Source of the DNA: Bacillota bacterium
Lineage (GTDB): Bacteria; Bacillota; Clostridia; Christensenellales; CAG-138
DNA length: 64,000 bases
Direction: 5' to 3'
NCBI GenBank assembly: GCA_016286445.1
Contig: JAEESS010000007.1
Span: 3,318 to 67,317, forward strand
Numbering within the stretch: position 1 is the stretch's first letter; each line of letters starts with the position of its first letter. The notes beneath the pieces were generated by a model. It saw only the letters and a list, made by a program, of their open reading frames with translations, was not told the origin of the DNA and did no database searches. The position numbers were made by a program, and so were the translations under genes. This document shows positions 13,185 to 36,383 of this stretch, piece after piece.

Positions 13185-13730
13185 ATGCCGATGGAAAGCT
13201 ATTGCCTGTTCTGCAAAAGCGGGCAGGAAGGTCTTGTGATCGATCTTTTGAAGCACGGCGGATATGCGGCGTTTTCTCCGTTTGCGGTGCGAAACAGACC
13301 GGACGCCGGCGGTCTTCGGAGAACGAAAGCGCGTTTGCTGCCGGGCTATGTGTTCTTTGAAGCGGAAAACGAGCCGGAATGGGACACGATCCGGCGATAC
13401 TCCGGCGTGCTGAAGATTCTGCGCTATGAGGACGGAAGCCGCGCGTTGCACGGAGATGATCTTGCGTTCGTCAAATGGCTGAAGCGCTACGAGGGCGTGA
13501 TCGATGTGTCGCAGGTCGTCAAGGTCGGCACGAAGATCGCGTTTGCCGGAGGACCGCTCGTCGGTATGGAAGCGAAGGTGCTGAAGGTCAACAAAAGCCG
13601 AAAGGCGGTTCAGATCGCGCTCGGCGACGGCGACGCGATATTCCGGAATATATGGTGCTCGATCGAGTACATCGGGGAAAACGCGGACATCGATATGCTG
13701 CATCAGTCGTCAGCGCAGCCGGAACAGTAA
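13185..13730 (+). CDS. Specialised NusG paralog (LoaP/UpxY-like transcription antiterminator)
   Basis: NGN-like LLPGYVFFEAENEPEWDTIRRYSGVLKIL and KOW-like VGTKIAFAGGPLVGMEAKVLKVNKSRKAVQIAL. RBS AAGGAGGAGG at 13175-13184 (the start may be the second ATG at 13191). Not in a secE-nusG-rplK context; sits at the head of a polysaccharide locus. Confidence 0.75.
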   Translation: MPMESYCLFCKSGQEGLVIDLLKHGGYAAFSPFAVRNRPDAGGLRRTKARLLPGYVFFEAENEPEWDTIRRYSGVLKILRYEDGSRALHGDDLAFVKWLKRYEGVIDVSQVVKVGTKIAFAGGPLVGMEAKVLKVNKSRKAVQIALGDGDAIFRNIWCSIEYIGENADIDMLHQSSAQPEQ

Positions 13731-13985: not shown

Positions 13986-14093
13986 ATAATATAGACAGAA
14001 AAATATGATAGCTTGCGAAAAATGCACGACAGAAGACGCATTGGGGAACGGACAGCGACGGATTTTGTGCTTTTTCCGGAAAGGATTTTTGCA

Positions 14094-14876
14094 TTGGAAC
14101 AGGTGAGACGGGACAAAAATGAAGTTGAGATCAATCTCGGAGATGTTTTCCAGATTCTGATCTCGAAATGGATCTATATTTTGCTTGCAGGCGTCCTTAC
14201 CGCGCTTGCGGTCGGTTTGTTTACGCATTTCCTTGTGCATAAGAAATACACGGCGTCGGTTTCCATGTATATCTACACGACGAACGACCAGAACCAGACC
14301 GGTACGATCAGCTACAGCGAACTGAGCGCGGCGGACAACCTGATCAAAACCTATCAAGTCATCGTAAAGAGCAATTCCGTTCTGGATACGGTTGCGGAGC
14401 GATTCAATGCCGAGCATCCGGAGTATGCGGAATGGGATATTCAGTCGAGCAACTTGTCGAGAGCAACGTCCGTCTCCGTTCCGAACGGGACCAAACTGAT
14501 TCAGGTGAGCGTTACGACCCGTGATCCGAAGCTGTCCGCGGACATCGCCAATACGTTTGCGAAGTATGTTCCCGAGCAGATCATCCGCATCACGAAAGCG
14601 GGCGGCGTTGAGATCGTGGACTATGCGACCGTTCCGAACGGTCCGTCCAGTCCGAATCTGACCAGAAACACGGTCCTCGGCTTTGCCGCGGGCTTCATAC
14701 TGGTCGCGGTATACTTCCTGCTGCGCGCATATCTTGATACGACGATCTATACGTCGGAGGAGGTCCAGAAGGTCAGCCGCTGCCCGGTGATCGGAACGGT
14801 ACCGATGATCGTTGCAAGCGGAGAGGAAACGGCACAATGGGAGGTCACGCTCCGGGAGGAAATCGTCAATGAGTAA
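14094..14876 (+). CDS. Wzz/CpsC-type polysaccharide co-polymerase (BY-kinase transmembrane modulator)
   Basis: ...EINLGDVFQILISKWIYILLAGVLTALAVGLF... N-terminal TM, a periplasmic-type Wzz domain and a C-terminal TM (VLGFAAGFILVAVYFLL). Start chosen at in-frame TTG 14094 behind GGAAAGGA (14077-14084). Alternatives are TTG 14013 and ATG 14022. Confidence 0.8.
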   Translation: MEQVRRDKNEVEINLGDVFQILISKWIYILLAGVLTALAVGLFTHFLVHKKYTASVSMYIYTTNDQNQTGTISYSELSAADNLIKTYQVIVKSNSVLDTVAERFNAEHPEYAEWDIQSSNLSRATSVSVPNGTKLIQVSVTTRDPKLSADIANTFAKYVPEQIIRITKAGGVEIVDYATVPNGPSSPNLTRNTVLGFAAGFILVAVYFLLRAYLDTTIYTSEEVQKVSRCPVIGTVPMIVASGEETAQWEVTLREEIVNE

Positions 14877-16422
14877 GATCACGATGAAACGTTCCGCTAA
14901 GAGCGGGAACAGCAAGCAGGAAGAACGCGCACAGATCCGGGAAAACCGGAGAAAGATCCTGACCGAATCCAGCGCCTTCGCCATCCGCGAGGCGTATGTG
15001 CAGCTTCGTACGAATCTGATGTACAGCGTGGCGTCGATGGACGACCGCGGCTGCAAGGTTTTCGGTGTAACGAGTGCGAATCCGTCCGAGGGCAAGAGCT
15101 TAACGGCGTCGAACATTGCGGTATCGTTCGCAATGCTCGGCAAAAAAACGCTGCTGATCGACTGCGACATGCGCAAGCCGAACATTGCGCGGCTTTGGCA
15201 TATCCATACGAACAACGGTCTGAGCGATCTGATCGCCAAGGTGGATGTATGCGATGTTTACGGCGTTGAAGGACTTCCGCTTTCGATCATCGCCTGCGGT
15301 AAAATTCCGCCGAATCCGTCGGAGATGCTGGCGTCCGCCGCGTTCCAGAATGCGATTGAGCGCTTCCGCAGAAAATACAATTACATCATCATCGATACTC
15401 CGCCGATCAACGAGGTCGCGGACGCGCAGATCGTATCGCGCGTGGTCGACGGCATGGTGCTGGTCATCCGTTCCGCAAAGACGAAGCAGAGAGATCTTGC
15501 GGAAGCCGAGAGCACGCTTCAAAGCGCAGGCGCACGGATCTGCGGCGTCGTGATCAACGATCTGAACCTCAAGCAGGGCGGAAAATACGGTTATAAGTAC
15601 GGCTATAAGTACGGTTATAAGTATGGCTATAAGTACGGGTACAAGTACGAGTATCAGTACGGCTACCGTTACGGGGATACGCCGGACTACGGCACGGATA
15701 CAGGCTCGGCGGCAGTCAAAAAACCGGTAAAGAAAGCTGCGGTAAGGGAGATTGATTTCCACGCGCATATTCTGCCCGGGCTCGATCACGGCAGCAAGGA
15801 TCTCGACAATTCGCTCGAACAGATCCGCCTTGCAAAGGCGGGCGGCGTCGATGTGATCTGCGCGACCTCACATTTTTACGGGCAGCAGATCGGCGTCGAA
15901 ACGTTCCTGGAGCAGCGCGCGCGCAGCTGGCTGGAATTGAAATCCAAGCTGGAGGAAGGCAGTCCCCGGATCGTTCTCGGGGCGGAAGTGCTCGCGTTTG
16001 AGGGGATCGATAAGCTGCCGCAGATTGAGAATCTGTGCATTGTCGGAACGAACATCCTGCTTCTTGAGATGCCGTTCGCACACTGGTCCGAGCGCTTGAT
16101 CGATTCGATCGAAACCCTGAGCGAGCGCGGCGATCTTGAGATCGTTCTTGCGCATGTGGATCGTTACGATCGCAAGCAGATCGAACGGCTGCTGGCAATG
16201 GACCATATCAAAGGACAGGTCAATGTGTCTGCGCTGACCAAGCATCTGCAGAGCAGCTATCTGCGCGACTGGATCAAGGAAGGAAAGATCGTCGCAGTGG
16301 GAAGCGATATCCACGGAACAAAGACCGGCTATACGGAGTGGCAATCCGTAAAGCAGCGGTATCCGGAGGAATGGAAAACCGTGATGCGGGAGACCGAAGC
16401 GCTGCTTTCGGATCTTCTCTGA
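14869..16422 (+). CDS. Fusion protein: BY-kinase (CpsD/YwqD-like), extended Tyr cluster, PHP-family phosphotyrosine phosphatase (CpsB/YwqE-like)
   Basis: Walker A GVTSANPSEGKSLTASN, A' LLIDCDMRKP, B IIIDTPP. Tyr cluster GGKYGYKYGYKYGYKYGYKYGYKYEYQYGYRYGDTPDYG. CpsB-like IDFHAHILPGLDHG, ATSHFY, LAHVDRY, GSDIH. One uninterrupted frame. Start MSKITMK at 14869 behind GGGAGGA. Confidence 0.85.
   Translation: MSKITMKRSAKSGNSKQEERAQIRENRRKILTESSAFAIREAYVQLRTNLMYSVASMDDRGCKVFGVTSANPSEGKSLTASNIAVSFAMLGKKTLLIDCDMRKPNIARLWHIHTNNGLSDLIAKVDVCDVYGVEGLPLSIIACGKIPPNPSEMLASAAFQNAIERFRRKYNYIIIDTPPINEVADAQIVSRVVDGMVLVIRSAKTKQRDLAEAESTLQSAGARICGVVINDLNLKQGGKYGYKYGYKYGYKYGYKYGYKYEYQYGYRYGDTPDYGTDTGSAAVKKPVKKAAVREIDFHAHILPGLDHGSKDLDNSLEQIRLAKAGGVDVICATSHFYGQQIGVETFLEQRARSWLELKSKLEEGSPRIVLGAEVLAFEGIDKLPQIENLCIVGTNILLLEMPFAHWSERLIDSIETLSERGDLEIVLAHVDRYDRKQIERLLAMDHIKGQVNVSALTKHLQSSYLRDWIKEGKIVAVGSDIHGTKTGYTEWQSVKQRYPEEWKTVMRETEALLSDLL
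15583..15676 (+). repeat. In-frame 12-nt tandem repeat (TACGGNTATAAG-like, about 5 near-perfect plus 2-3 degenerate units) encoding (YGYK)n
   Basis: Read directly: tacggttataag tacggctataag tacggttataag tatggctataag tacgggtacaag tacgagtatcag tacggctaccgt. Confidence 0.9.
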
Positions 16423-16589: not shown

Positions 16590-18131
16590 GTGCAAGAAAC
16601 CAACACAAATCAGACGAACCAACTGCATCAAAAACCGAAATCCCGGAAAAAAAGAACGGTTCTGTGGATCGTTCTGTCGATCGCGGCGCTTGCTTTGATC
16701 GGCGGCGGGATCTACGCGTGGCATGTACTGAAGCGACCGGATGTATTTTTCGATCAGACTGCGCGCATATCCGCCCAATCGACGCCGGAAACGACGCCCG
16801 CTTTCGATATAGAAGCGTATCTGCCGACGGCAGAGCCCGGCACAGCGCCGAGTTTGACGGCAGCGCCGGAGGAGACGTCCGGATCTGCTGAGCAAGCGAA
16901 TGAAAGCATACCCATGACGGGGATCGTCAATATCGCCCTGTTCGGGATCGACGCATATGAGGACGGGACGTCGACAAGCGGCACCATGCCGCATACCGAC
17001 GCCAATATGATCGTCGCGATCAATTTCGAGAAAAAGGAAGTCAGTCTGATTTCCATCGCGCGCGACTGTCTGACGACTGCGCCGGGTCATACCGGGTTTT
17101 ATAAGTTCAACGGCGTTTTCAACGTCGGCGGCGGCATGAAGGACCCGAAGGCGGGGTTTGAACTGAGCTCCCGCGCCGCGGAGGAGTGGCTCGGCGGTGT
17201 TTCCGTTCCGTATTATTACGGCGTGGACTTCCAGGCGGTGATCGATCTGGTCGATATGATCGGCGGGATTGATTTTGATGTGGAGATCAGACTGACAACG
17301 CTTAACGGCAGGACGATCAATCCGGGCAGGCGCCATCTGGACGGCAACGGCGTAATGGCATATATGCGTATGCGCAAAACCGCGGACGGCCTCGATTCAA
17401 GCCGGACCGCACGCCAGCGCAAGATGCTGATCGCAATCTTCAAGAAGCTGAAGCAGGAAAGCAAGCTTTCCATGATCCCGGATCTTCTGAAGACCATGGG
17501 CGACAATGTCTATACGAATACAAGTCTGACGCAAACGATGTCGCTCGTGAATTTTGCGCAGGGACTGGACGAAGACAGCATCCGTTCTTACAGCATTCAG
17601 GGGCGTATGCATTATCAGTACGATTGGCGGTATTGCTTTATCGATCAGCAGGCGCGAATCGATATTCTGAAGGAAGTGTACGGGATCGATGCGGAGCCGA
17701 TGCGGATCGATTCGCTTGTGTATGAAACCTTTCTTTACGACAGCGGATTTCGGGCGATCCAGTATCTGACGATTGCGCAAAAGCTGTTTGCAGCCATACA
17801 TGAACTGGGACCCGCCGACGCCATGAGCGAGGAGCAGAAGACCGCCTATGCCGTCTGCTGGAAGGATTACGAGAACCTGCGCGACCGGTTCCGCGCCGTC
17901 GACCGCTGGACGCAGGAGCATTATGACAGTACCGGATTCACGAAAGAGGAACAACAGAAGCGTACGAATGATTACGAAGAACTGAAAGCGCTTGAGGCAA
18001 AGCTGAAGGAATCGGGCGACGCGCTCAATACGCTGTTCCGGAATCCGATCACATTGAGATGGAACCGAAGCATCATCAATTGGTACAAAGAGGACAGCGA
18101 TATCAACGACGTTTACGTTGATTTCCGATAA
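16590..18131 (+). CDS. LCP (LytR-CpsA-Psr) family glycopolymer phosphotransferase, copy 1
   Basis: N-terminal TM, then NIALFGIDAYEDG...HTDANMIVAINFEKKEVSLISIARD...YYYGVDFQAVIDLVDMIGGIDFDV...RTARQRKMLIAIFKKLK. GTG start with RBS-like CAGGAGA. Confidence 0.85.
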   Translation: MQETNTNQTNQLHQKPKSRKKRTVLWIVLSIAALALIGGGIYAWHVLKRPDVFFDQTARISAQSTPETTPAFDIEAYLPTAEPGTAPSLTAAPEETSGSAEQANESIPMTGIVNIALFGIDAYEDGTSTSGTMPHTDANMIVAINFEKKEVSLISIARDCLTTAPGHTGFYKFNGVFNVGGGMKDPKAGFELSSRAAEEWLGGVSVPYYYGVDFQAVIDLVDMIGGIDFDVEIRLTTLNGRTINPGRRHLDGNGVMAYMRMRKTADGLDSSRTARQRKMLIAIFKKLKQESKLSMIPDLLKTMGDNVYTNTSLTQTMSLVNFAQGLDEDSIRSYSIQGRMHYQYDWRYCFIDQQARIDILKEVYGIDAEPMRIDSLVYETFLYDSGFRAIQYLTIAQKLFAAIHELGPADAMSEEQKTAYAVCWKDYENLRDRFRAVDRWTQEHYDSTGFTKEEQQKRTNDYEELKALEAKLKESGDALNTLFRNPITLRWNRSIINWYKEDSDINDVYVDFR

Positions 18132-18190: not shown

Positions 18191-20260
18191 ATGAACAAAA
18201 CCATGACAGAACAAGAATCAAAGCGCAAAACGGACAAGCGGAAAGGAAAAACGAAGATCCTCTTTTCCGTTCTTCTCGGCGTATATGATTTCATTGCCGT
18301 ATGCGCCGCCTATTTTCTGGCGCTTTGGATGCGGTTTGATTTCTTCTTTTCCCATATAGAACAGAAATATCTGGATGCATTCGGCAAATTCATCCTGTTT
18401 TACGGCGCGTTTTCCGTGCTGGTTCTTTGGCTGTTCCGCCTTTACAAGACGCTGTGGAGATACATCGGGATCAGCGAGATGGTCCGCACGCTTGCGGTAT
18501 CCCTGCTGCTCTCTGTTGTGCACGCCGTTGCGATCACGCTCATATTCTGGCACCGCATGCCGTTCTCTTATTATATCGGCGGCGCGATGATTCAGGCGGT
18601 CTTTCTGATCGGCATGCGGTTTTCGGCGCGTATGTACAGCAACTGGCACAGCCGAAAGGCGTTCAGCCATATGCCGATGGATCGCGTAATGCTGATCGGC
18701 GCGGGCAATGCGGGACAAATGATCCTGAAGGACATGGTTGCAAATCCCGTTAACCGTGACAAGGTCGTCTGCATCATTGACGACGATCCGAACAAGCAGG
18801 GCAGGTATCTGGAAAGCGTCCCGATCGTCGGCGGACGCGAGGACATCCTTTCCGCGGTACAAAAATATCGGATCGACAAGATCTACCTTGCGATTCCCAG
18901 TGCGACGGCAGAACAGAAACGCGATATCCTGGCGATCTGCAACGAGACGGACTGTGAGCTCAAGCAGCTCCCGGGCATTTATCAGCTGATTTCCGGACAG
19001 GTGACCGTCAGCGCGATGAAGGATGTTGCGGTGGAGGATCTTTTGGGCCGTGAACCGATCCGACCCGATCTTTCCGGCGTTTACTCCTTTATCAACGGAA
19101 AAACCGTTCTTGTCACCGGCGGCGGCGGATCCATCGGAAGCGAGCTTTGCCGCCAGATCGCGGCGCACGGACCGAAGCAGCTGATCATCTTCGATGTATA
19201 TGAGAACAGCGCATATGAGATCCAGCAGGAGCTGAAGGAACTGTATCCGACGATGGATCTTGTCGTGCTGATCGGTTCCGTCCGCGACAGCCGCAGGATG
19301 TTCAAGGTGTTCGATACCTACCGCCCGCAGATCGTTTACCATGCGGCGGCGCACAAGCATGTTCCGCTGATGGAGGACAGCCCGTGCGAAGCGATCAAGA
19401 ACAATGTGCTCGGAACGTACAAAACCGCGTATGCCGCGATGGTCCACGGCTGCGAGCGTTTTGTTCTGATCTCCACGGACAAGGCGGTCAATCCGACAAA
19501 CGTCATGGGCGCCAGCAAGCGCCTGTGCGAGATGATCGTGCAGTGCTTCGACGCAAAGATCAAGGCGGGCAAAGCAAGCGAGATCCCGCAGCTCTTTACG
19601 CATGAAGGCTGGGAAAACGCCGACAAGGACGGCACCGGAAGCGTGTTCCGCAGCATCAGGACCGAGTTTGTCGCGGTGCGGTTCGGCAATGTTCTCGGCA
19701 GCAACGGTTCCGTGATCCCGCTGTTTAAGAAGCAGATCGCGAAGGGCGGTCCCGTTACGGTCACGCATCCGGACGTCGTCCGCTACTTTATGACGATCCC
19801 GGAGGCGGTCAGCCTTGTCATGCTGGCAGGAACATACGCAAAAGGCGGCGAGATCTTTGTGCTGGATATGGGAAGTCCGGTCAAGATCGACACGCTTGCC
19901 AGAAATCTCATCCGGCAGGCGGGATTGAAACCGGACGTCGATATCAAGATCGAGTATACCGGTCTTCGTCCCGGCGAAAAACTGTATGAGGAAAAGCTGA
20001 TGGCAGCGGAAGGTCTCAGAAAGACGGAAAACGAGCTGATCCACATCGGCGCGCCGATCAAACTCGACCAGGATCTTCTTTTCAAAAACCTCAATACGCT
20101 CATGAACGCAGCGTATGCCAATGACGAACGGATCCGCGCGCTTCTGCTCGATATAGTACCGACCTATCATCCTGCAGACAACAGCGGAGACAAGCCGACG
20201 ATTACGATATACGGCGCACATGGGAAGGAAGAGAAGGACGAACTGCATGCCGCAGGCTGA
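18191..20260 (+). CDS. Membrane-anchored NDP-sugar 4,6-dehydratase (CapD/PglF/WbpM family)
   Basis: 4 N-terminal TM helices. Rossmann motifs MLIGAGNAGQ and LVTGGGGSIGSEL. HAAAHKHVPLME and STDKAVNPTNVMGASKR are Polysacc_synt_2 hallmarks. Confidence 0.85.
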   Translation: MNKTMTEQESKRKTDKRKGKTKILFSVLLGVYDFIAVCAAYFLALWMRFDFFFSHIEQKYLDAFGKFILFYGAFSVLVLWLFRLYKTLWRYIGISEMVRTLAVSLLLSVVHAVAITLIFWHRMPFSYYIGGAMIQAVFLIGMRFSARMYSNWHSRKAFSHMPMDRVMLIGAGNAGQMILKDMVANPVNRDKVVCIIDDDPNKQGRYLESVPIVGGREDILSAVQKYRIDKIYLAIPSATAEQKRDILAICNETDCELKQLPGIYQLISGQVTVSAMKDVAVEDLLGREPIRPDLSGVYSFINGKTVLVTGGGGSIGSELCRQIAAHGPKQLIIFDVYENSAYEIQQELKELYPTMDLVVLIGSVRDSRRMFKVFDTYRPQIVYHAAAHKHVPLMEDSPCEAIKNNVLGTYKTAYAAMVHGCERFVLISTDKAVNPTNVMGASKRLCEMIVQCFDAKIKAGKASEIPQLFTHEGWENADKDGTGSVFRSIRTEFVAVRFGNVLGSNGSVIPLFKKQIAKGGPVTVTHPDVVRYFMTIPEAVSLVMLAGTYAKGGEIFVLDMGSPVKIDTLARNLIRQAGLKPDVDIKIEYTGLRPGEKLYEEKLMAAEGLRKTENELIHIGAPIKLDQDLLFKNLNTLMNAAYANDERIRALLLDIVPTYHPADNSGDKPTITIYGAHGKEEKDELHAAG

Positions 20261-23138: not shown

Positions 23139-24032
23139 GTGAAAAAATACGTTCAAGATATAGATGGCTGGCAATACTATAATCATGCAATGATTCCATC
23201 ATCTGCTCCGCATGCAGATGTTGATCTTTCCACTATTCTGAACGGGGAGATATGGCGTTATAGAAACGGAAAAGACCGTCCGCTTCTCGTCAGATGGACA
23301 ACAGACTGGGATTGTGATTGTGAGACAGGATGGTGGTTTGTTGTCCGTGAAAGACCTTTTGACTTGAAGGATCTGTCTTCCTCTTCCCGGAGGAACATTA
23401 GGAAATCCCTTAGGAATTGCAGAGTCGAAAGGATCAATCCCGGAGAGTATGCTGAGGATTTATGGCGGGTATTCAATGAAGCTGCGGAGAGGTATCGGAA
23501 TTACCGCATCACTGTTACAAAACAAGAGTTTGTAAACAGAATAATTGACAGCGAAACAGAACAGGAATACTGGGGCGGTTTTGACAATCAAACGGGAAGG
23601 ATGATAGGATATGCGATCTTTCAACCGCATCAGGATTGGGTTGAGTTTCTTGTATCAAAGTATTCGACCCGATATTTGAAGCTCAGGGTCAGCGATGCCA
23701 TCAATGCGAAAGCGTTGGACTATTACCTGAATCAATTGAAAAAAAGGTACATATCCGACGGAGCGCGTTCTGTCTTTCATAAGACGAGTTTTCAGGAATA
23801 CCTAAGAGACCACTTTGGATACCGATGCGCTTTTTGCAGACTTCATGTATTGTACAAAAAACCGGTTAAGCTGTTAATTGATTTGCTGTATCCACTCAGG
23901 TCTGTTTTCCGTCGGTTTGATGATATCGGAGCAATTCATCAGATGAATTCCTTGCTCTATATGGAAGAGATCATTAGGGAGGAAAGCAAGAGAACTGTTG
24001 CTGCGGGATCGGTTCGATTGCGGCAGTTTTAG
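23139..24032 (+). CDS. Uncharacterised protein, possibly FemAB-like/GNAT-fold (Acetyltransf_6-type)
   Basis: 297 aa with a GTG start. SSSSRRNIRKSLRNCRVERI resembles the ...R.NIRKA.K.GV... segment of FemX/MurM-like and CelD-like GNAT proteins. Weak, motif-level only. Confidence 0.4.
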   Translation: MKKYVQDIDGWQYYNHAMIPSSAPHADVDLSTILNGEIWRYRNGKDRPLLVRWTTDWDCDCETGWWFVVRERPFDLKDLSSSSRRNIRKSLRNCRVERINPGEYAEDLWRVFNEAAERYRNYRITVTKQEFVNRIIDSETEQEYWGGFDNQTGRMIGYAIFQPHQDWVEFLVSKYSTRYLKLRVSDAINAKALDYYLNQLKKRYISDGARSVFHKTSFQEYLRDHFGYRCAFCRLHVLYKKPVKLLIDLLYPLRSVFRRFDDIGAIHQMNSLLYMEEIIREESKRTVAAGSVRLRQF

Positions 24033-24057: not shown

Positions 24058-24786
24058 ATGCGGAAGATCGGCTTTTACGAAAAGTATATCAAACGGATTC
24101 TGGACATTATCTGCTCGCTTCTGGCGCTGATTGTGTTTAGCTGGTTATATGCAATTGTTGCCATAGCCGTGCGGATCAAATTAGGGTCGCCTGTTGTTTT
24201 CAAGCAGCCGCGCCCCGGGCTGATTGATCCGAAAACCGGTAAAGAACGAATCTTTCATTTATACAAGTTTCGGTCTATGACGGATGAGCGTGATCAATCC
24301 GGAAATCTTCTTCCTGATGAACAGAGATTGACGAAATTCGGAAGAATGCTGAGAGCGACCAGCTTGGATGAACTTCCGGAAGCGATCAACATTCTCAAAG
24401 GCGATATGTCGGTAATAGGTCCGCGACCGCAGCTTGTGCGGGATATGGTGTTTATGTCCGAGGAACAGCGAATGCGTCATACGGCAAGGCCGGGATTAAG
24501 CGGGTTAGCGCAAGTAAGAGGAAGGAACGCGATTTCGTGGGAAGATAAAATCAACTGGGACTTGGAATATATTAATGATGTTTCTTTTAAAAACGATTTC
24601 AGACTGGTTGTTGAAACGATCAAAGTTGCACTAATAGAGCAAGAAGGCATAACAGATGGAGAAAATGCCACTGCTTTGGATTACGGTGACATGCTGTTGA
24701 AAACAGGAAAAATATCCAAAACACAATATGATGCATGTCAAGCATATGCAAAGCAGATTCTGGAGGAAAGAGATGAAGTTCGTTAA
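24058..24786 (+). CDS. Monotopic phosphoglycosyl transferase (PglC/WbaP C-terminal type, Bac_transf)
   Basis: KRILDIICSLLALIVFSWL re-entrant helix, KFRSM and DELPEAINILKGDMSVIGPRP motifs. Confidence 0.9.
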   Translation: MRKIGFYEKYIKRILDIICSLLALIVFSWLYAIVAIAVRIKLGSPVVFKQPRPGLIDPKTGKERIFHLYKFRSMTDERDQSGNLLPDEQRLTKFGRMLRATSLDELPEAINILKGDMSVIGPRPQLVRDMVFMSEEQRMRHTARPGLSGLAQVRGRNAISWEDKINWDLEYINDVSFKNDFRLVVETIKVALIEQEGITDGENATALDYGDMLLKTGKISKTQYDACQAYAKQILEERDEVR

Positions 24787-28467: not shown

Positions 28468-29244
28468 ATGGCAAAAATCAAACAGCTTTTGAGAAAAGTC
28501 AAGAGACTGATACTGAAAAACCGGATCAAAAAACATGAGAAACTATTTGATCGGTTATCATATTGCTTCTTTCCCTGTGAAAAGAGCAAAACGTTGATCG
28601 TCGTATTTTCGGCATTCCCCGGAAAGGACTGTCCGCCGGTCTATAATTATCTAACAACGCTCTCCGGAATCAAAGCCAACAAACTGTTTCTGTTGGACGA
28701 TGTTTGGAATCCGGTCAATGTCGGAAGCTATTACCTCGGAAAGGACGGGGATTGGTATCTTGAACAGGATGTTTTGGACCTTTTACAGAAGATAAAAGCC
28801 GAGCATGCGTATGATAAAGTGATCACCGTCGGCTCCAGCAAGGGCGGCACATCCGCGCTGTATTTCGGAATAAAAACGGAGGCGGATACTTGTATCATCG
28901 GCGCACCGCAGTATCATGTGGGAAGTTATCTGTCATCCGAGCATTCGAGACCGATTTTGAAGGTGATCATGGGCGACAGCAGTCAGTCGTCCATTGATAA
29001 ACTCAACAGCTATATCGTTGATGAAATGCGGAAAGATCATTCGAAAAAATCTACGATCTATATCCATTATTCTCCGAAAGAGCATACGTATAAGGATCAT
29101 ATCAAGGACATGATTGCAGATTTGCATGAAAATGGCTATCAGGTGATCGAAGATAATGCATACGATTATGAACAGCACAGCGATGTCGCTAAGCATTTCC
29201 CTGCTTACCTTGTAAGTACCGTTAAGCGTGAAATACAGGATTGA
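28468..29244 (+). CDS. Alpha/beta-hydrolase-fold protein of unknown role
   Basis: KTLIVVFSAFPG...LFLLDD...ITVGSSKGGTSALYFG (GxSxG elbow). The track ORF 28162 start overlaps wecC and is rejected. Confidence 0.45.
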   Translation: MAKIKQLLRKVKRLILKNRIKKHEKLFDRLSYCFFPCEKSKTLIVVFSAFPGKDCPPVYNYLTTLSGIKANKLFLLDDVWNPVNVGSYYLGKDGDWYLEQDVLDLLQKIKAEHAYDKVITVGSSKGGTSALYFGIKTEADTCIIGAPQYHVGSYLSSEHSRPILKVIMGDSSQSSIDKLNSYIVDEMRKDHSKKSTIYIHYSPKEHTYKDHIKDMIADLHENGYQVIEDNAYDYEQHSDVAKHFPAYLVSTVKREIQD

Positions 29245-29291
29245 ACAAAGGTTGGTATGAACAAACGTTCGGATTATTACAGGAAACACAA

Positions 29292-30476
29292 ATGTTGGAT
29301 CATGTTTTGATTATAAAGTTACAGGCATATAACAGCTTATCATCATCCAATATGCGCATGCTGGCCATGATGAAAGGGCTTAATGAACTGGGGTATAAAA
29401 TGGACTTGCTTTGTACCCCGGTCAGTGCTGTTACGCATATTAATGATATGAGCGACTATGCGTTTCTGAAGGGCGTCAATATCATTACAACTTCACAAAA
29501 CAAGGCGTATGAGAGCTTGGTATCCTCTCCGAAGGGAACAAAAAAGGGACTGAAGCAAAAGCTGCTTCCCGTACTCAGAAAGGTGTATCATAAGTTATCC
29601 CTTTATACAAGCTCATCAACAATAGCAAAGAAGCTGACGTTGGATATTCTTCCGCGAAAAGAATATCAGTATGTCATTTCCGTTTCTGATCCGAAGATTT
29701 CTCAAATTGCGTTAAGAGCGCTGCTAAAGGATGGTTTAAGAAGTGAAAAGGTGATCGAATACTGGGGGGATCCGATGACCGGTGACATTACACAGAGGGC
29801 AATTTATCCGGAGTTTATCATCAAAAGAGAAGAAAGAAAATACCTTAAGATCGCGGACAGAATTGTATACACATCCCCGTTTACTTTGGAGATGGAGCAG
29901 AAAACGCATCCGATGTATGCGGATAAAATGCTTTTTGTTCCGACAGCGAACGCATTCCGAAAGATATACCCGGATACGAAGAACGATTTGTTTACGGTCG
30001 GGTATTACGGCGCTTATCATTCCGGGATCAGGAATATTATGCCGCTTTACAATGCGTTTTCTTCTTTGATAGGGATTGCAAAGCTCAATCTGGTCGGCGA
30101 CTCGGATTTGCAATTACAGCCTACTGAGAATATCATGATCCGCCCGCGGGGAGTTGTAAAGGACTTGGAAGAACAAACCGATTTGTTTGTTTGCGTTTTG
30201 AACAGTTCAGGGACGCAGATCCCCGGAAAGCTCTACCATAATGCAGCAACAAACCGTCCGATCCTTGTCATTCTTGACGGGGAGCGGCAAGATGAAATGC
30301 GAGAGTACTTGGAATCGTTTGATCGGTTTATCCTTTGCGGTAATTCGGAGACGGAAATCGCATCCGCAATCAAATCTGTTATGAACGACAAGAGGGTATG
30401 GGAGCCGTGTAAATTGTTGGAGCCCAAAACAATTGCTGCAAAAATCATCGATTTTGATGGGGAAACAAAGGAATGA
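29292..30476 (+). CDS. Putative GT-B fold glycosyltransferase
   Basis: MLDHVLIIKLQAYNSLSSSNMRMLAMMKGL... and C-terminal ...GTQIPGKLYHNAATNRPILVILDG.... Start uncertain (TTG 29241 or ATG 29292). Confidence 0.45.
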   Translation: MLDHVLIIKLQAYNSLSSSNMRMLAMMKGLNELGYKMDLLCTPVSAVTHINDMSDYAFLKGVNIITTSQNKAYESLVSSPKGTKKGLKQKLLPVLRKVYHKLSLYTSSSTIAKKLTLDILPRKEYQYVISVSDPKISQIALRALLKDGLRSEKVIEYWGDPMTGDITQRAIYPEFIIKREERKYLKIADRIVYTSPFTLEMEQKTHPMYADKMLFVPTANAFRKIYPDTKNDLFTVGYYGAYHSGIRNIMPLYNAFSSLIGIAKLNLVGDSDLQLQPTENIMIRPRGVVKDLEEQTDLFVCVLNSSGTQIPGKLYHNAATNRPILVILDGERQDEMREYLESFDRFILCGNSETEIASAIKSVMNDKRVWEPCKLLEPKTIAAKIIDFDGETKE

Positions 30477-31615
30477 TCAAAAAGCTATGTGTTATTTCGG
30501 CATATTATCCGTCTGAAAACGATCCGCATTATGCGTTTGTCGGAACGTTGATCAGTGCAATCGCCGATCAGGGAATTGAATGTCATGTGATTTCTCCGGT
30601 TTCCAATATGGAGAAACAACACAGAGCGGAATCCAGAATTGAGACAACGCTGAACGGCGCAAAAATCCATGTGTATTGTCCGTCCTATACGGTTTTTCCG
30701 AGTAGAAGGATTTTTGGCTATGAGACATATCGTCTTACCGTTTCATCGAAGCAGCGTGCGATTCGTAAAACCTTTGAAAGGTATATTCATGATTGCGATG
30801 CAATCTATTCCCATTTCATCGACTCCGGGGTGCATGCGGCGCTGTTGTCTGAAAAAACAGGGGTTCCGGCGTTTGTTGCCATCGGTGAGAGCAATCTTAA
30901 CAATAAACAGCTGAACTATTCACTGTATATGAAGGAACTGCAGAGATATATTAAAGGCGTGGTGTCTGTATCTTCTGAGCTAAAGAAAGATGCGCTTGAT
31001 ATCGGCATATTCTCTGCAGAGACGCCGATCGAAGTCTTTCCGAACAGCATCGATACGGATCTTTTCAAGCCGATGGATAAAGCCGAACAGCGAAAGAATC
31101 TGGGGTTATCCGATACGGATTTTGTCGTTTCCTTTGTAGGCGGTTTTATCGAGCGAAAGGGCTTTGATAAGGTACAGCAGATTATCAGACGCCATCCGGA
31201 TTGGAAGTGTATTCTGATCGGAGGCGGGGATATCCCCATAACCGTTCCCAAAGAACAAATTGCTTTCGCCGGAAGGATCAGTCACGACCGGATACCGGCA
31301 TATCTTTGTGCATCCGACGTATTTGTTCTTCCTACAAAGGCGGAAGGCTGCTGCAATGCGATCGTCGAGGCGATGGGGTGCGGGTTGCCGATCGTTTCCT
31401 CCGATAGAGGGTTTAATTACGACATTTTGAATCGCGAGTATGCGATTCTGGTCGATCCGGAGAATATTGACGAAATTGAACAAGCGTTGATGACATATGC
31501 ATCTGATCAGCAGCTCCGAAAGGAACATGCGGACAAAAGCTTGCAGGCGGGCAAGCTCTTGTCGATCGAAAACCGTGCAAACGGAATTGTTCGTTTTATG
31601 GAGAAGAATCTATGA
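30473..31615 (+). CDS. Glycosyltransferase family 4
   Basis: ...FVGGFIERKGFDKV...LPTKAEGCCNAIVEAMGCGLPIVSS... (EX7E region). Confidence 0.85.
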   Translation: MIKKLCVISAYYPSENDPHYAFVGTLISAIADQGIECHVISPVSNMEKQHRAESRIETTLNGAKIHVYCPSYTVFPSRRIFGYETYRLTVSSKQRAIRKTFERYIHDCDAIYSHFIDSGVHAALLSEKTGVPAFVAIGESNLNNKQLNYSLYMKELQRYIKGVVSVSSELKKDALDIGIFSAETPIEVFPNSIDTDLFKPMDKAEQRKNLGLSDTDFVVSFVGGFIERKGFDKVQQIIRRHPDWKCILIGGGDIPITVPKEQIAFAGRISHDRIPAYLCASDVFVLPTKAEGCCNAIVEAMGCGLPIVSSDRGFNYDILNREYAILVDPENIDEIEQALMTYASDQQLRKEHADKSLQAGKLLSIENRANGIVRFMEKNL

Positions 31616-32859
31616 ACCGTTCTCTGGGATTACGGATAAATTGTCAAATACTAAGCAAAGTATTGTTTGCTTTTTATATTGTATATACAAACGTCCTAAG
31701 CTATTCGCTTTTCTTTGTACGAGGATTGTCTTCTGCGTTACTGATCGGCGCAATTGCATTGCAATTGCTGCATGAAAGATTTAGGATCCGTTTGGATAGA
31801 AGCCTGATTGCATTGCTGGTTTTTGCAGCATATTTGTTATTGTCGGGTTTGCTTGTCGCCTATGATTACAGCAAGACATTTAGTACGGTCCTATCATTTT
31901 TGGAGTATTTGGGTGTTTTTTATTTGGTGGTTTATTATATTCAATCTGACAACAAACCGGATTTTCCTATGTATGTTTTTATCATACAAGCGATCGCAGC
32001 AACACTCATCTTGATTCTGAATGGCGTCGGGGTGAAAAGAGTCAGCATTGCTGAAAACGTAAATGTAAATACCATCGGTGTAACACTTACATTTGCGATA
32101 GGGTTTGTTTTATATTTATTGATTGCAAGGAAAAACAGCGCTGTTAAGTGGGGAATCAGCATTACAGCGATTGCAGTTTTGCTTATTGGTGTATTATTGA
32201 CTGTTTCCAAGAAAGCAATTATCGGCGGCGCTGCTTTGATTATACTGTGGACGGTTCTCTGCTATCGTTATACGTTTGCACGAATTAAGTGGTTTTGGAA
32301 ACTCTTTCTTGTTGCTGTACTAGTATTCTCCGGAATACTCATATATAGGTGGTACACTTCAAGATACGCGCTTCAGATGGAAGTGTTTATGTTTCGAATG
32401 AGCGAGACGTATGTTGGTGACAGTGATCAGGAAAGGATAGAATTGTTTAAAGAAGGACTACTGCTTTTCCTTTCTCATCCATTCTTCGGTGTGGGATTTA
32501 ACAATGCAAGATACTATACTTCGTGGAGCACCTACACACATTGTCTGTATAGTGAAATGTTGGCATGTACGGGTATTATTGGGACGCTGATCTTTGGATA
32601 TACGCTCGTCCGACCGTGGGTGATCATCTCAAGGAAACGGGAATCATACAAACGGACAGATCTAATTCTCAATACGCGCACAAAATACTTGTTAGCGATA
32701 TTTGTCGTTTTCTTTGCAATCAGCTTTACAACGATTGCGTTTTATGCACAAAACCTGATGTATATTGTGGCGGTCGTCGCAGGATATGCGATCACAACGC
32801 CGCTTGCGAGAGAGGAAGAAAGGAATGCAGCAGATGAAAAGATTACGCTCGTTTGTTAA
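31612..32859 (+). CDS. wzy: O-antigen polymerase/ligase-like membrane protein (Wzy candidate)
   Basis: 415 aa with 10 or more hydrophobic segments and a larger loop ...RMSETYVGDSDQERIELFKEG.... Lies among GT genes with a separate Wzx. No strict motif exists for Wzy. Confidence 0.65.
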   Translation: MNRSLGLRINCQILSKVLFAFYIVYTNVLSYSLFFVRGLSSALLIGAIALQLLHERFRIRLDRSLIALLVFAAYLLLSGLLVAYDYSKTFSTVLSFLEYLGVFYLVVYYIQSDNKPDFPMYVFIIQAIAATLILILNGVGVKRVSIAENVNVNTIGVTLTFAIGFVLYLLIARKNSAVKWGISITAIAVLLIGVLLTVSKKAIIGGAALIILWTVLCYRYTFARIKWFWKLFLVAVLVFSGILIYRWYTSRYALQMEVFMFRMSETYVGDSDQERIELFKEGLLLFLSHPFFGVGFNNARYYTSWSTYTHCLYSEMLACTGIIGTLIFGYTLVRPWVIISRKRESYKRTDLILNTRTKYLLAIFVVFFAISFTTIAFYAQNLMYIVAVVAGYAITTPLAREEERNAADEKITLVC

Positions 32860-34847: not shown

Positions 34848-36383
34848 ATGAGAAAAAAGAAAGCACTTATAAATACGATTTTTTCGATGCTGTTGGAAGT
34901 GATCACGGTTGTTGCCGGGTTTATCCTTCCCAGATTGTTCATCGGAACGTTTGGATCGGAAGTCAACGGGTTGGTGTCTTCGATAACAAGTTTTATCGGT
35001 TACATCACGCTTCTTCAATCCGGCGTCGGAACGGTCGCCAAGGCTGCCATGTACAAGCCTCTGGCAAAGAAGGATCATGACAAGCTTTGCGTTATCGCAA
35101 AAACCGTAGAATCCTTTTTCCGGAAGATCGCATTTATTACCATCGCATATATAGCCGTTCTCGCAGGCCTGTTTCCGACGCTGATCGCGCCGGACACGGG
35201 ATCGTTTTTGTATACGGCTTCATTGGTGGTGATCATAGGCGTTAGCACCGCAGCGCAGTATTTCTTTGGCATTACGCACCAAATGCTGCTGGAGGCGGAT
35301 CAAAACTCCTATGTCTATTCAATCCTGCAGATTGCGACAGTCATCGTCAACACGGCGGTGTCCGTAGTTTTGATCAAAGCCGGTTGCTCGGTTCAGATCG
35401 TGAAACTGGGCAGTGCTGCTATCTTTGTATTGCGTCCGCTGCTGCTCAGCATCTACACCAAGAGGAAATATAAGCTTTACGGCAAATATGAGGTTGATAA
35501 TTCGCTGATCAAGCAACGCTGGGACGGCTTTGCGCAGGCGATAGCATATTTCATTCATTCAAAGACCGATATTTTTGTGCTGACGCTGTTTGCCAGATTC
35601 AGCCCAAATGTTTCATTGAGCCTGGTTTCCGTTTACAGCGTTTATCACTTGGTCACGACCGGTTTGACGTCATTTATCCGTGCGATTGAACGAGCAGTTA
35701 CGTCGGCACTCGGCAATATCATTGCATTGGGCGAGCGAGATACCCTTGTCAAGACATTTCAGGCATATAACAATTTCATGCATATTCTGTGTACGACGGT
35801 GTTTGCGACCGCAAGCATAACGGTGTTCAAGTTTGTCGGTATCTATGTCAAAAACATTACCGATGTGGAATATGTGCAATATGCATTCGGTTATATCATT
35901 ATTGCAGCCGAATATCTGTTTTGTTTGCGGTTACCGTACACCAGCCTCATCAATGCGGCAGGAAAGTTCAAAGAGACAAGAACCTCGGCAATCGTAGAAG
36001 CAGTCTCGAACATTGCTGTTTCTGTGATACTGGTATCGAGATTCGGGTTGATCGGCGTAGCGATCGGCACGTTTGTTGCTATGGCATATCGAACGGTTTC
36101 CTTTATGATCTTTTTGCATAAAGACGTTATCTGCTTGAGTATCGGCACACAGATCAAGAGGTATTTGCTTTCTTTTGTGATCTACGGGGCTTTGGTTTAT
36201 GCAGCTTCACTGATCAATATTCAAATCACACACTATGTGTCATGGATTCTTTATGCGGGAATTACGTTTGCGGCGACCGGCGCGGTTACATTACTGGTCA
36301 ATCTCCTTATCATGCGAAAAGAAACTGTTGCCGTAATCAAAACGTTCATCAGACGTCTGCCCAAAAAACGGGCGGATTCTTGA
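34848..36383 (+). CDS. wzx: MOP-superfamily oligosaccharide flippase (Wzx)
   Basis: 511 aa with about 12-14 TM segments. N-terminus MRKKKALINTIFSMLLEVITVVAGFILPRLFIGTFGSEVNGL is typical of polysaccharide-biosynthesis flippases. Confidence 0.75.
   Translation: MRKKKALINTIFSMLLEVITVVAGFILPRLFIGTFGSEVNGLVSSITSFIGYITLLQSGVGTVAKAAMYKPLAKKDHDKLCVIAKTVESFFRKIAFITIAYIAVLAGLFPTLIAPDTGSFLYTASLVVIIGVSTAAQYFFGITHQMLLEADQNSYVYSILQIATVIVNTAVSVVLIKAGCSVQIVKLGSAAIFVLRPLLLSIYTKRKYKLYGKYEVDNSLIKQRWDGFAQAIAYFIHSKTDIFVLTLFARFSPNVSLSLVSVYSVYHLVTTGLTSFIRAIERAVTSALGNIIALGERDTLVKTFQAYNNFMHILCTTVFATASITVFKFVGIYVKNITDVEYVQYAFGYIIIAAEYLFCLRLPYTSLINAAGKFKETRTSAIVEAVSNIAVSVILVSRFGLIGVAIGTFVAMAYRTVSFMIFLHKDVICLSIGTQIKRYLLSFVIYGALVYAASLINIQITHYVSWILYAGITFAATGAVTLLVNLLIMRKETVAVIKTFIRRLPKKRADS

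Follow-up and report, generated by a model that had tools for sequence, protein, structure and literature searches.

Can a tyrosine kinase of the bacterial type (BY-kinase) and the PHP-type phosphotyrosine phosphatase that resets it reside in one polypeptide, and if so, what does this imply for the way in which the two enzymes meet? The question is raised by a gene in a 64,000-nt stretch of Bacillota bacterium DNA (contig JAEESS010000007.1 of GenBank assembly GCA_016286445.1, positions 3,318 to 67,317), referred to here as the window. BY-kinase function is thought to need cycles of Tyr-cluster phosphorylation coupled to ring assembly and disassembly and, according to a 2022 review, the way in which the PHP phosphatases of Gram-positive bacteria engage the kinase domains cognate to them "is not known" (PMC9800525). 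An earlier note on this DNA had read the gene as a kinase, a Tyr cluster and a PHP phosphatase in a single frame, together forming a self-contained phospho-cycling module. The analysis presented here establishes the architecture and its rarity, shows that each half has its catalytic motifs intact and that the fusion arose once, and documents purifying selection over a long time. We consider it probable that the gene is a genuine and maintained fusion of adjacent CpsD/CapB/YwqD-type kinase and CpsB/CapC/YwqE-type PHP genes within a Wzy-type polysaccharide locus, and that it serves an ordinary CpsC/CpsD/CpsB-type cycle.

The gene lies within a single open reading frame (ORF) extending from 14812 to 16422 (coordinates are those of the window and all features described are on the forward strand). 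The start was taken as the ATG at 14869, which yields a 517-aa product (14869..16422; ORF listing, Pfam, NCBIfam). This ATG forms an 8-nt overlap with the stop of the preceding Wzz/CpsC gene (ATGAGTAA), has a GGAGG 9 nt 5′ to it and was also chosen as start by independent gene calls. Kinase, Tyr cluster, a spacer of about 20 aa and a complete PHP domain are found in one chain: domain profiles bear out the three-part architecture proposed in the earlier note, the CpsC-like modulator still being encoded by a separate gene 5′ of the fusion. Pfam places P-loop families (AAA_31/ParA) at aa 64–234, while sequence searches against solved structures in the PDB align aa 32–245 with CapB (4jlv, E 8.5e-41) and aa 295–487 with YwqE (3qy6, E 1.5e-8 and, in another search, 5e-9). 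In an AlphaFold2 (AF2) model the predicted local distance difference test score (pLDDT) is about 97 over aa 290–517 and below 50 over aa 224–280, a segment which includes the Tyr cluster. Foldseek ranked CpsB (3qy8), YwqE (3qy6) and Cps4B (2wjd) first, followed by CapAB, Wzc, BceF and VpsO.

The BY-kinase catalytic domain (aa 41–244; 14989..15600) is defined by the CapB 4jlv match and by the NCBIfam profile TIGR01007 (186.9 bits for a cut-off of 108.05, E 3e-55, aa 41–244). It includes a Walker A motif, A70-NPSEGK76-S77 (ANPSEGKS, aa 70–77; 15076..15099), invariant in the fused sequences which cover it; a Walker A′ motif, IDCDMRKP (aa 97–104; 15157..15180), where LLIDCDMR (aa 95–102) satisfies the hhhhDxDxR pattern; and a Walker B motif, IIIDTPP (aa 173–179; 15385..15405). 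All three are invariant or conservatively substituted throughout an alignment of 16 fused sequences. Judged by family profile and motifs, the kinase half appears to be a complete F-type BY-kinase domain for which autophosphorylation is predicted.

The Tyr cluster (aa 240–274; 15586..15690) follows directly C-terminal to the catalytic domain and is itself followed by a further 243 residues. Tyr positions counted in the alignment number exactly 16, occupying each second residue of aa 240–268 together with Y274. Its coding sequence consists largely of a 12-nt tandem repeat (TACGGCTATAAG; 6.7 copies, 82% matches, 15586–15665) identified by Tandem Repeats Finder. The copy number of this repeat varies between orthologs (10–16 Tyr), always in frame, and the cluster looks like a slippage-prone substrate tail of variable length.

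Between Y274 and I295 lies a 20-residue spacer (GTDTGSAAVKKPVKKAAVRE, aa 275–294; 15691..15750), which is predicted to be disordered (mean pLDDT of 39 for the 10-residue block 271–280 and 71 for 281–290) and which includes a basic patch. The spacers of the orthologs vary in both sequence and length (20–38 aa, usually 20–23 and never less than 20) and carry a recurrent basic patch of the form R/K-K/R-P-x-x-K (RKPxxK or KKPVKK). Cluster and spacer together occupy 59–79 residues in the fused orthologs, in frame and free of stops throughout. A minimum of 20 aa is consistent with the Tyr cluster and the PHP barrel requiring some slack between them. The first strand of the PHP domain, β1 (IDFHAH), would have two metal ligands at its C-terminal end, so that the chain presumably comes into the domain from the side facing away from the active site; about 20 residues of spacer are plausibly the minimum which would let the last tyrosines fold back into the PHP site, and such a requirement would account for the conserved minimum length.

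The remainder of the protein (aa 295–517; 15751..16419) is a CpsB/YwqE-type PHP phosphotyrosine phosphatase domain, identified from Pfam CpsB_CapC (PF19567; aa 295–486, 76.4 bits for a cut-off of 27, E 3e-21), from the AF2 model, from the leading Foldseek matches 3qy8, 3qy6 and 2wjd (E 8e-11 to 4e-10, template modelling scores 0.68–0.73) and from its metal ligands. The motifs DFHAH, TSH, HVDRY and GSDIH, listed in the earlier note, are all present and are invariant or nearly so in the 16 fused sequences. In full, the conserved motifs are DFHAH (296–300), DHG (306–308), TSH (333–335), GAE (371–373), LEMPF (399–403), AHVDRY (428–433) and GSDIHG (478–483), the sole departures among the fused sequences being single E373D, A332S and S334P substitutions. 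Cps4B has nine metal ligands: H5, H7, D14, H42, E80, E108, H136, D199 and H201 (PMC2777267). Eight of these are retained here, as H298, H300, H335, E373, E400, H429, D480 and H482, and the key catalytic Arg139 of Cps4B corresponds to R432, which is invariant in the fused sequences.

An obvious concern is that two genes were joined by an assembly or sequencing artefact, through a lost stop codon or a frameshift: in relatives the kinase and PHP genes are normally adjacent and only a few nucleotides apart, and the 12-nt tandem repeat encoding the Tyr cluster is prone to mis-assembly. This explanation is effectively refuted. An identical 517-aa protein was called on 9 contigs which were assembled independently and come from one NCBI assembly and from several Logan run assemblies. 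In addition, 77 loci obtained by scanning one genome per GTDB species (185,579 species genomes) were each checked for a stop or a change of frame between the kinase and PHP matches. The ORF is single and uninterrupted in 13 GTDB species-representative metagenome-assembled genomes (MAGs; L010–L018 and L021–L024) and in the metagenome contigs L003 and L004. Neither a stop nor a frameshift separates Tyr cluster and PHP domain in the 9 identical contigs or in these 15 diverged fused sequences, in which the frame is kept through many in-frame indels, and the period of the repeat is divisible by 3. An assembly frameshift was rejected on these grounds.

The 13 fused species representatives are all MAGs labelled Clostridia and derive mostly from ruminant gut, with sources including cattle omasum, buffalo reticulum, goat omasum and sheep rumen. 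The fused orthologs are 88–99% identical to the window protein in the kinase and 68–89% in the PHP domain. Neighbour-joining trees, whether built from the PHP domain or from both domains concatenated, group all fused sequences in one clade, with the unfused loci L005, L025 and L026 as sister; the kinase-only tree is less resolved. These trees point to a single origin of the kinase-PHP fusion, in uncultured gut Clostridia known mostly from ruminants. Within the fused clade, at a synonymous divergence (dS) of about 1.0–1.1, the ratio of nonsynonymous to synonymous divergence (dN/dS) amounts to 0.052 in the kinase and 0.135 in the PHP domain; for the unfused relatives the values are 0.089 and 0.180 at dS 1.1–1.3. 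Purifying constraint in the fused clade is no weaker than in the unfused relatives, and low dN/dS at such a dS indicates that both halves have long been under strong purifying selection in the fused state.

The unfused loci (L005/P0125, L025 and L026, and also L009, L019, L020, L027 and L029) are 77–88% identical to the window in the kinase and 54–69% in the PHP domain, and they too carry a long (KYGY)n Tyr cluster. Unlike in the fused genes, the kinase stops 3–8 residues past the last Tyr and the PHP gene, in the same order, starts 5–40 nt further on; its start has no obvious Shine-Dalgarno sequence, which suggests translational coupling. A fusion would be easily made from this arrangement, and the fused spacer is about 10–25 aa longer than a plain read-through of a sister-type junction would produce. 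One of the unfused loci, L005/P0125, with the order Wzz-kinase-PHP-CapD-VanZ-DegT, was found under the same NCBI accession as a fused locus (GCA_016648615.1); its kinase and PHP domain are 84% and 69% identical to those of the window. The two loci are paralogs if the accession represents one genome, although it may instead be a metagenome.

A different situation is found inside the fused clade itself. Contig L008 (P0122), 92% identical to the fused L014, has a TAG in the linker where L021 has AAG (L008:330–370), together with a GTG two codons ahead of EIDFHAH, and both halves are intact. It represents either a secondary split by a single AAG→TAG change or a sequencing error; whichever its origin, the fused and split states are one nucleotide apart. 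It is the only truly split case among the stand-alone PHP matches of this kind: P0121, P0123, P0129 and P0143 (75–81% identical), considered as unfused close relatives, proved to be fragments resulting from contig ends or internal Met calls. P0004 (375 aa, no PHP match in Pfam) was likewise discarded as an unfused relative, being a fusion which leaves the frame after IDFHAHVLPGCDHG on a frameshifted or low-quality contig.

How widespread is the architecture? In an exhaustive phmmer search with the whole protein against 1.84 billion cluster representatives, each of the best 150 matches covered a single domain, and the highest score (307 bits) went to a 263-aa kinase; the fused clade itself was hidden under shorter representatives in this search, and other small clades may therefore be hidden too. 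A database of 5.8 billion clusters was also searched with a two-domain profile made from 21 kinase+PHP pairs (32–82% identity), either real or joined virtually. Only P0001–P0003 were matched over both domains (551–566 bits), together with the frameshifted P0004, and the next match (319 bits) was to a kinase only. No kinase+PHP fusion was found beyond the clade in the searches of the 1.84 billion representatives, of the two-domain profile or of the 185,579 species genomes. The long representatives with a kinase which were candidate distant fusions (P0244, P0252, P0264, P0270, P0274, P0286, P0297, P0300 and P0357) are PHP-free according to Pfam. Candidates with fusions C-terminal to the kinase (P0010, P0020, P0030, P0040 and P0081) consist of a truncated kinase joined to a truncated family 2 glycosyltransferase (GT2), CapD, family 1 glycosyltransferase (GT1) or LytR-CpsA-Psr (LCP) protein; these look like deletion chimeras or metagenome misassemblies and are no evidence that BY-kinases fuse freely.

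No description of a kinase-PHP fusion was found in the searchable full-text literature, whose scope leaves out most subscription journals and includes two BY-kinase reviews or analyses. The NCBI name of one fused ortholog, MDO4835404.1, is only "polysaccharide biosynthesis tyrosine autokinase", which marks an annotation gap. At the scale of these sequence and literature searches, the architecture is neither already widespread nor characterised: it is rare, confined to one clade and conserved, and is undescribed within the literature searched.

The fusion gene lies near the head of what appears, from its gene content, to be a standard Wzy-type polysaccharide operon with a CpsBCD-type phosphoregulatory module, extending roughly from 13.2 to 38.7 kb. 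The operon is headed by a NusG paralog (LoaP-like; 13191..13730; Pfam NusG, E 5e-8), followed by the separate gene for a CpsC/YwqC-type membrane modulator (Wzz + GNVR; 14022..14876; Pfam Wzz, E 1.6e-10; TIGR01006, E 1e-39), by the fusion gene and, directly 3′ of it, by a gene for an LCP ligase (16590..18131; Pfam, E 2.5e-26). A CapD-like Polysacc_synt_2 dehydratase (18191..20260; Pfam) marks the start of the biosynthetic part, which continues to about 38720 and in which Pfam also identifies a Bac_transf initiating transferase (24058–24786) and a Wzy-type polymerase (Wzy_C; 31612–32859). The operon further encodes VanZ, a DegT aminotransferase, several GT2 and GT1 glycosyltransferases, a UDP-sugar dehydrogenase, a pyruvyl transferase and a UDP-GlcNAc 2-epimerase.

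The order NusG paralog, Wzz, fusion gene, LCP and CapD is common to all fused loci with enough flanking sequence. The NusG paralog is syntenic in most fused loci and the LCP gene in every one for which the downstream flank is available (15/16); in most unfused sister loci both are absent from the corresponding positions. Three ORFs of the window operon, of 297, 411 and 511 aa (23139–24032, 29241–30476 and 34848–36383), have no significant Pfam match. No ORF of the operon matched any family of Wzx flippases. The 511-aa ORF (34848–36383), which has no Pfam match even at E = 1, is located at a position which would suit a Wzx flippase. The 64-kb window includes no further kinase or PHP gene, and scans of positions 1–64000 with Rfam (gathering threshold) and for tRNAs found nothing.

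How does this module compare with known systems? The S. pneumoniae CpsC/CpsD/CpsB, S. aureus CapA/CapB/CapC and B. subtilis YwqC(TkmA)/YwqD(PtkA)/YwqE(PtpZ) modules provide the same three functions, a Wzz-type membrane modulator, a Walker A/A′/B P-loop tyrosine autokinase bearing a Tyr cluster and a PHP phosphatase dependent on metal, in the same setting at the start of a Wzy-type polysaccharide locus adjoining an LCP (CpsA-like) gene. In these firmicute modules the kinase, the modulator and the PHP phosphatase are normally separate proteins, as the earlier note rightly stated, whereas here kinase and phosphatase form one polypeptide, and the Tyr cluster is internal rather than the free C-terminal tail of the BY-kinases so far described. 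The gene order also differs (modulator, kinase-phosphatase, LCP as against cpsA-B-C-D), and the cluster is far longer, with 16 Tyr compared with the Y215/Y218/Y221 sites mutated in CpsD (PMC9800525). A precedent for fusing parts of the module is provided by the proteobacterial P-type BY-kinase Wzc, whose modulator and kinase are one chain and which, with Wzb, has in common the cyclic model in which phosphorylation and dephosphorylation go together with the assembly and disassembly of an octamer (PMC9800525). However, Wzc joins a transmembrane modulator to the kinase rather than the kinase to its phosphatase, and its phosphatase, Wzb, is a separate tyrosine phosphatase of the low molecular weight type (LMW-PTP) with a fold and mechanism unrelated to those of PHP.

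Under the reading which we favour, that of a maintained fusion serving an ordinary cycle, the separate CpsC-like membrane protein encoded just 5′ would activate the kinase domain, which would trans-autophosphorylate the Tyr cluster (aa 240–274) of an adjacent subunit in the oligomer. The metal-dependent PHP domain, tethered 20–55 residues past the tyrosines, would then remove the phosphates, and the cycle, which is of the kind described for BY-kinases generally (PMC9800525), would tune how the polymer is assembled, on the pattern of the split systems CpsBCD, CapABC and YwqCDE. Joining the two enzymes sets the kinase:phosphatase ratio at 1:1 and gives a high local concentration of phosphatase beside the substrate tail. 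Its effect is probably quantitative, a faster or fuller resetting for which translational coupling would be unneeded, and a new kind of regulation is unlikely. The catalytic activities, dephosphorylation in cis or in trans and any effect on oligomerisation are inferred. The functional side of the earlier proposal, which extends to a possible change in the geometry of the kinase ring, is plausible, tempered by signs that fused and split states are nearly interchangeable: sister genes lie 5–40 nt apart, L008 is split again and the unfused relatives have long Tyr clusters, all of which point to a small functional step. The module is moreover not self-contained, as had been suggested, because the separate membrane modulator would still be required.

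Several observations weigh against this reading. The fusion is found in no cultured organism, and the re-split variant L008 means that fusion is not obligatory. The kinase half is poorly modelled by AF2 (pLDDT 30–80, from a mixed alignment) and gives no information on interdomain geometry or ring formation; the model was for this reason not used for interdomain geometry. At three positions the lineage departs from the known firmicute modules. The oligomerisation motif (O-motif) reads ExxVxxR, E41-x-x-V44-x-x-R47 (aa 41–47; 14989–15009), instead of ExxRxxR: E41 and R47 are invariant among 21 diverse kinases while the central position, which is R/K in F-type kinases further removed, is occupied by V, I or T across the lineage, fused and unfused. 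In the PHP domain the position of Cps4B Asp14 is taken by His307 (DHG instead of DDG; 15787–15789), a residue type which also binds metals, and Cps4B Arg206 aligns with Gly487 (16327–16329), K485 lying close by. In Cps4B, Arg206 is an auxiliary, phosphate-binding residue and the R206A mutant is still about 40% active (PMC2777267). Both substitutions extend across the lineage, and since the unfused relatives share them, as they share ExxVxxR, none of the three is a product of the fusion.

The two PHP substitutions could be taken to mean that one half is a degenerate pseudo-enzyme, the PHP domain being retained, for example, as a scaffold or retargeted to other substrates, and the PHP domain does evolve faster than the kinase. 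We regard this as highly improbable: the remaining metal ligands and the equivalent of Arg139 (R432) are invariant, a dN/dS of 0.135 represents strong constraint, the same substitutions occur in stand-alone orthologs annotated by JGI as protein-tyrosine phosphatase, and loss of Arg206 leaves Cps4B partly active. There is equally little to recommend the idea that internal initiation in the linker also, or mainly, yields a separate PHP protein and hence an effectively split system. An in-frame ATG (L021) or GTG (the split L008) does occur two codons before EIDFHAH, but most fused orthologs have no start codon at that position and spacer codons 275–294 of the window include no in-frame ATG, GTG or TTG and no properly spaced Shine-Dalgarno sequence.

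A more ambitious proposal makes the fusion an adaptive device with a mechanism of its own, in which the Tyr cluster would act as an internal loop and move in cis between its own PHP site and the kinase site of a neighbour; it is unlikely, though worth setting out, that this is so. It is similarly doubtful that the loop would drive an autonomous, self-resetting assembly/disassembly oscillator, a ring with eight built-in phosphatases, or that the PHP domains would form part of the kinase ring or sterically gate it, with the spacer and its basic patch setting the timing. That at least 13 species have kept the fused state over a dS of about 1 speaks for such a device, as does a spacer which is always at least 20 aa long with a recurrent basic patch beside an acidic or phosphorylated cluster; the additional 10–25 aa beyond read-through length suggest a linker shaped during or after the fusion. 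However, a lineage inside the clade was split again by one nucleotide with both halves intact, relatives work with separate genes, and the unfused relatives likewise show DHG, G487, ExxVxxR and a long Tyr cluster, leaving no domain feature specific to the fused proteins. If true, an internal-loop oscillator would be a mode of BY-kinase regulation unseen in split systems. An ordinary cycle run by a maintained fusion is the reading which we retain.

Since close relatives manage with two genes, the biological impact of the fusion is probably modest. It constitutes "Rosetta-stone" evidence for kinase and phosphatase acting in 1:1 physical proximity, and shows that a Tyr cluster can stay under selection without a free C-terminal tail. 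It also offers a natural single-chain construct for cryo-EM or crystallography of a PHP phosphatase beside its substrate and for the dissection of cis and trans activities with point mutants. What the fusion chiefly offers is a natural handle on the engagement between PHP phosphatases and BY-kinases.

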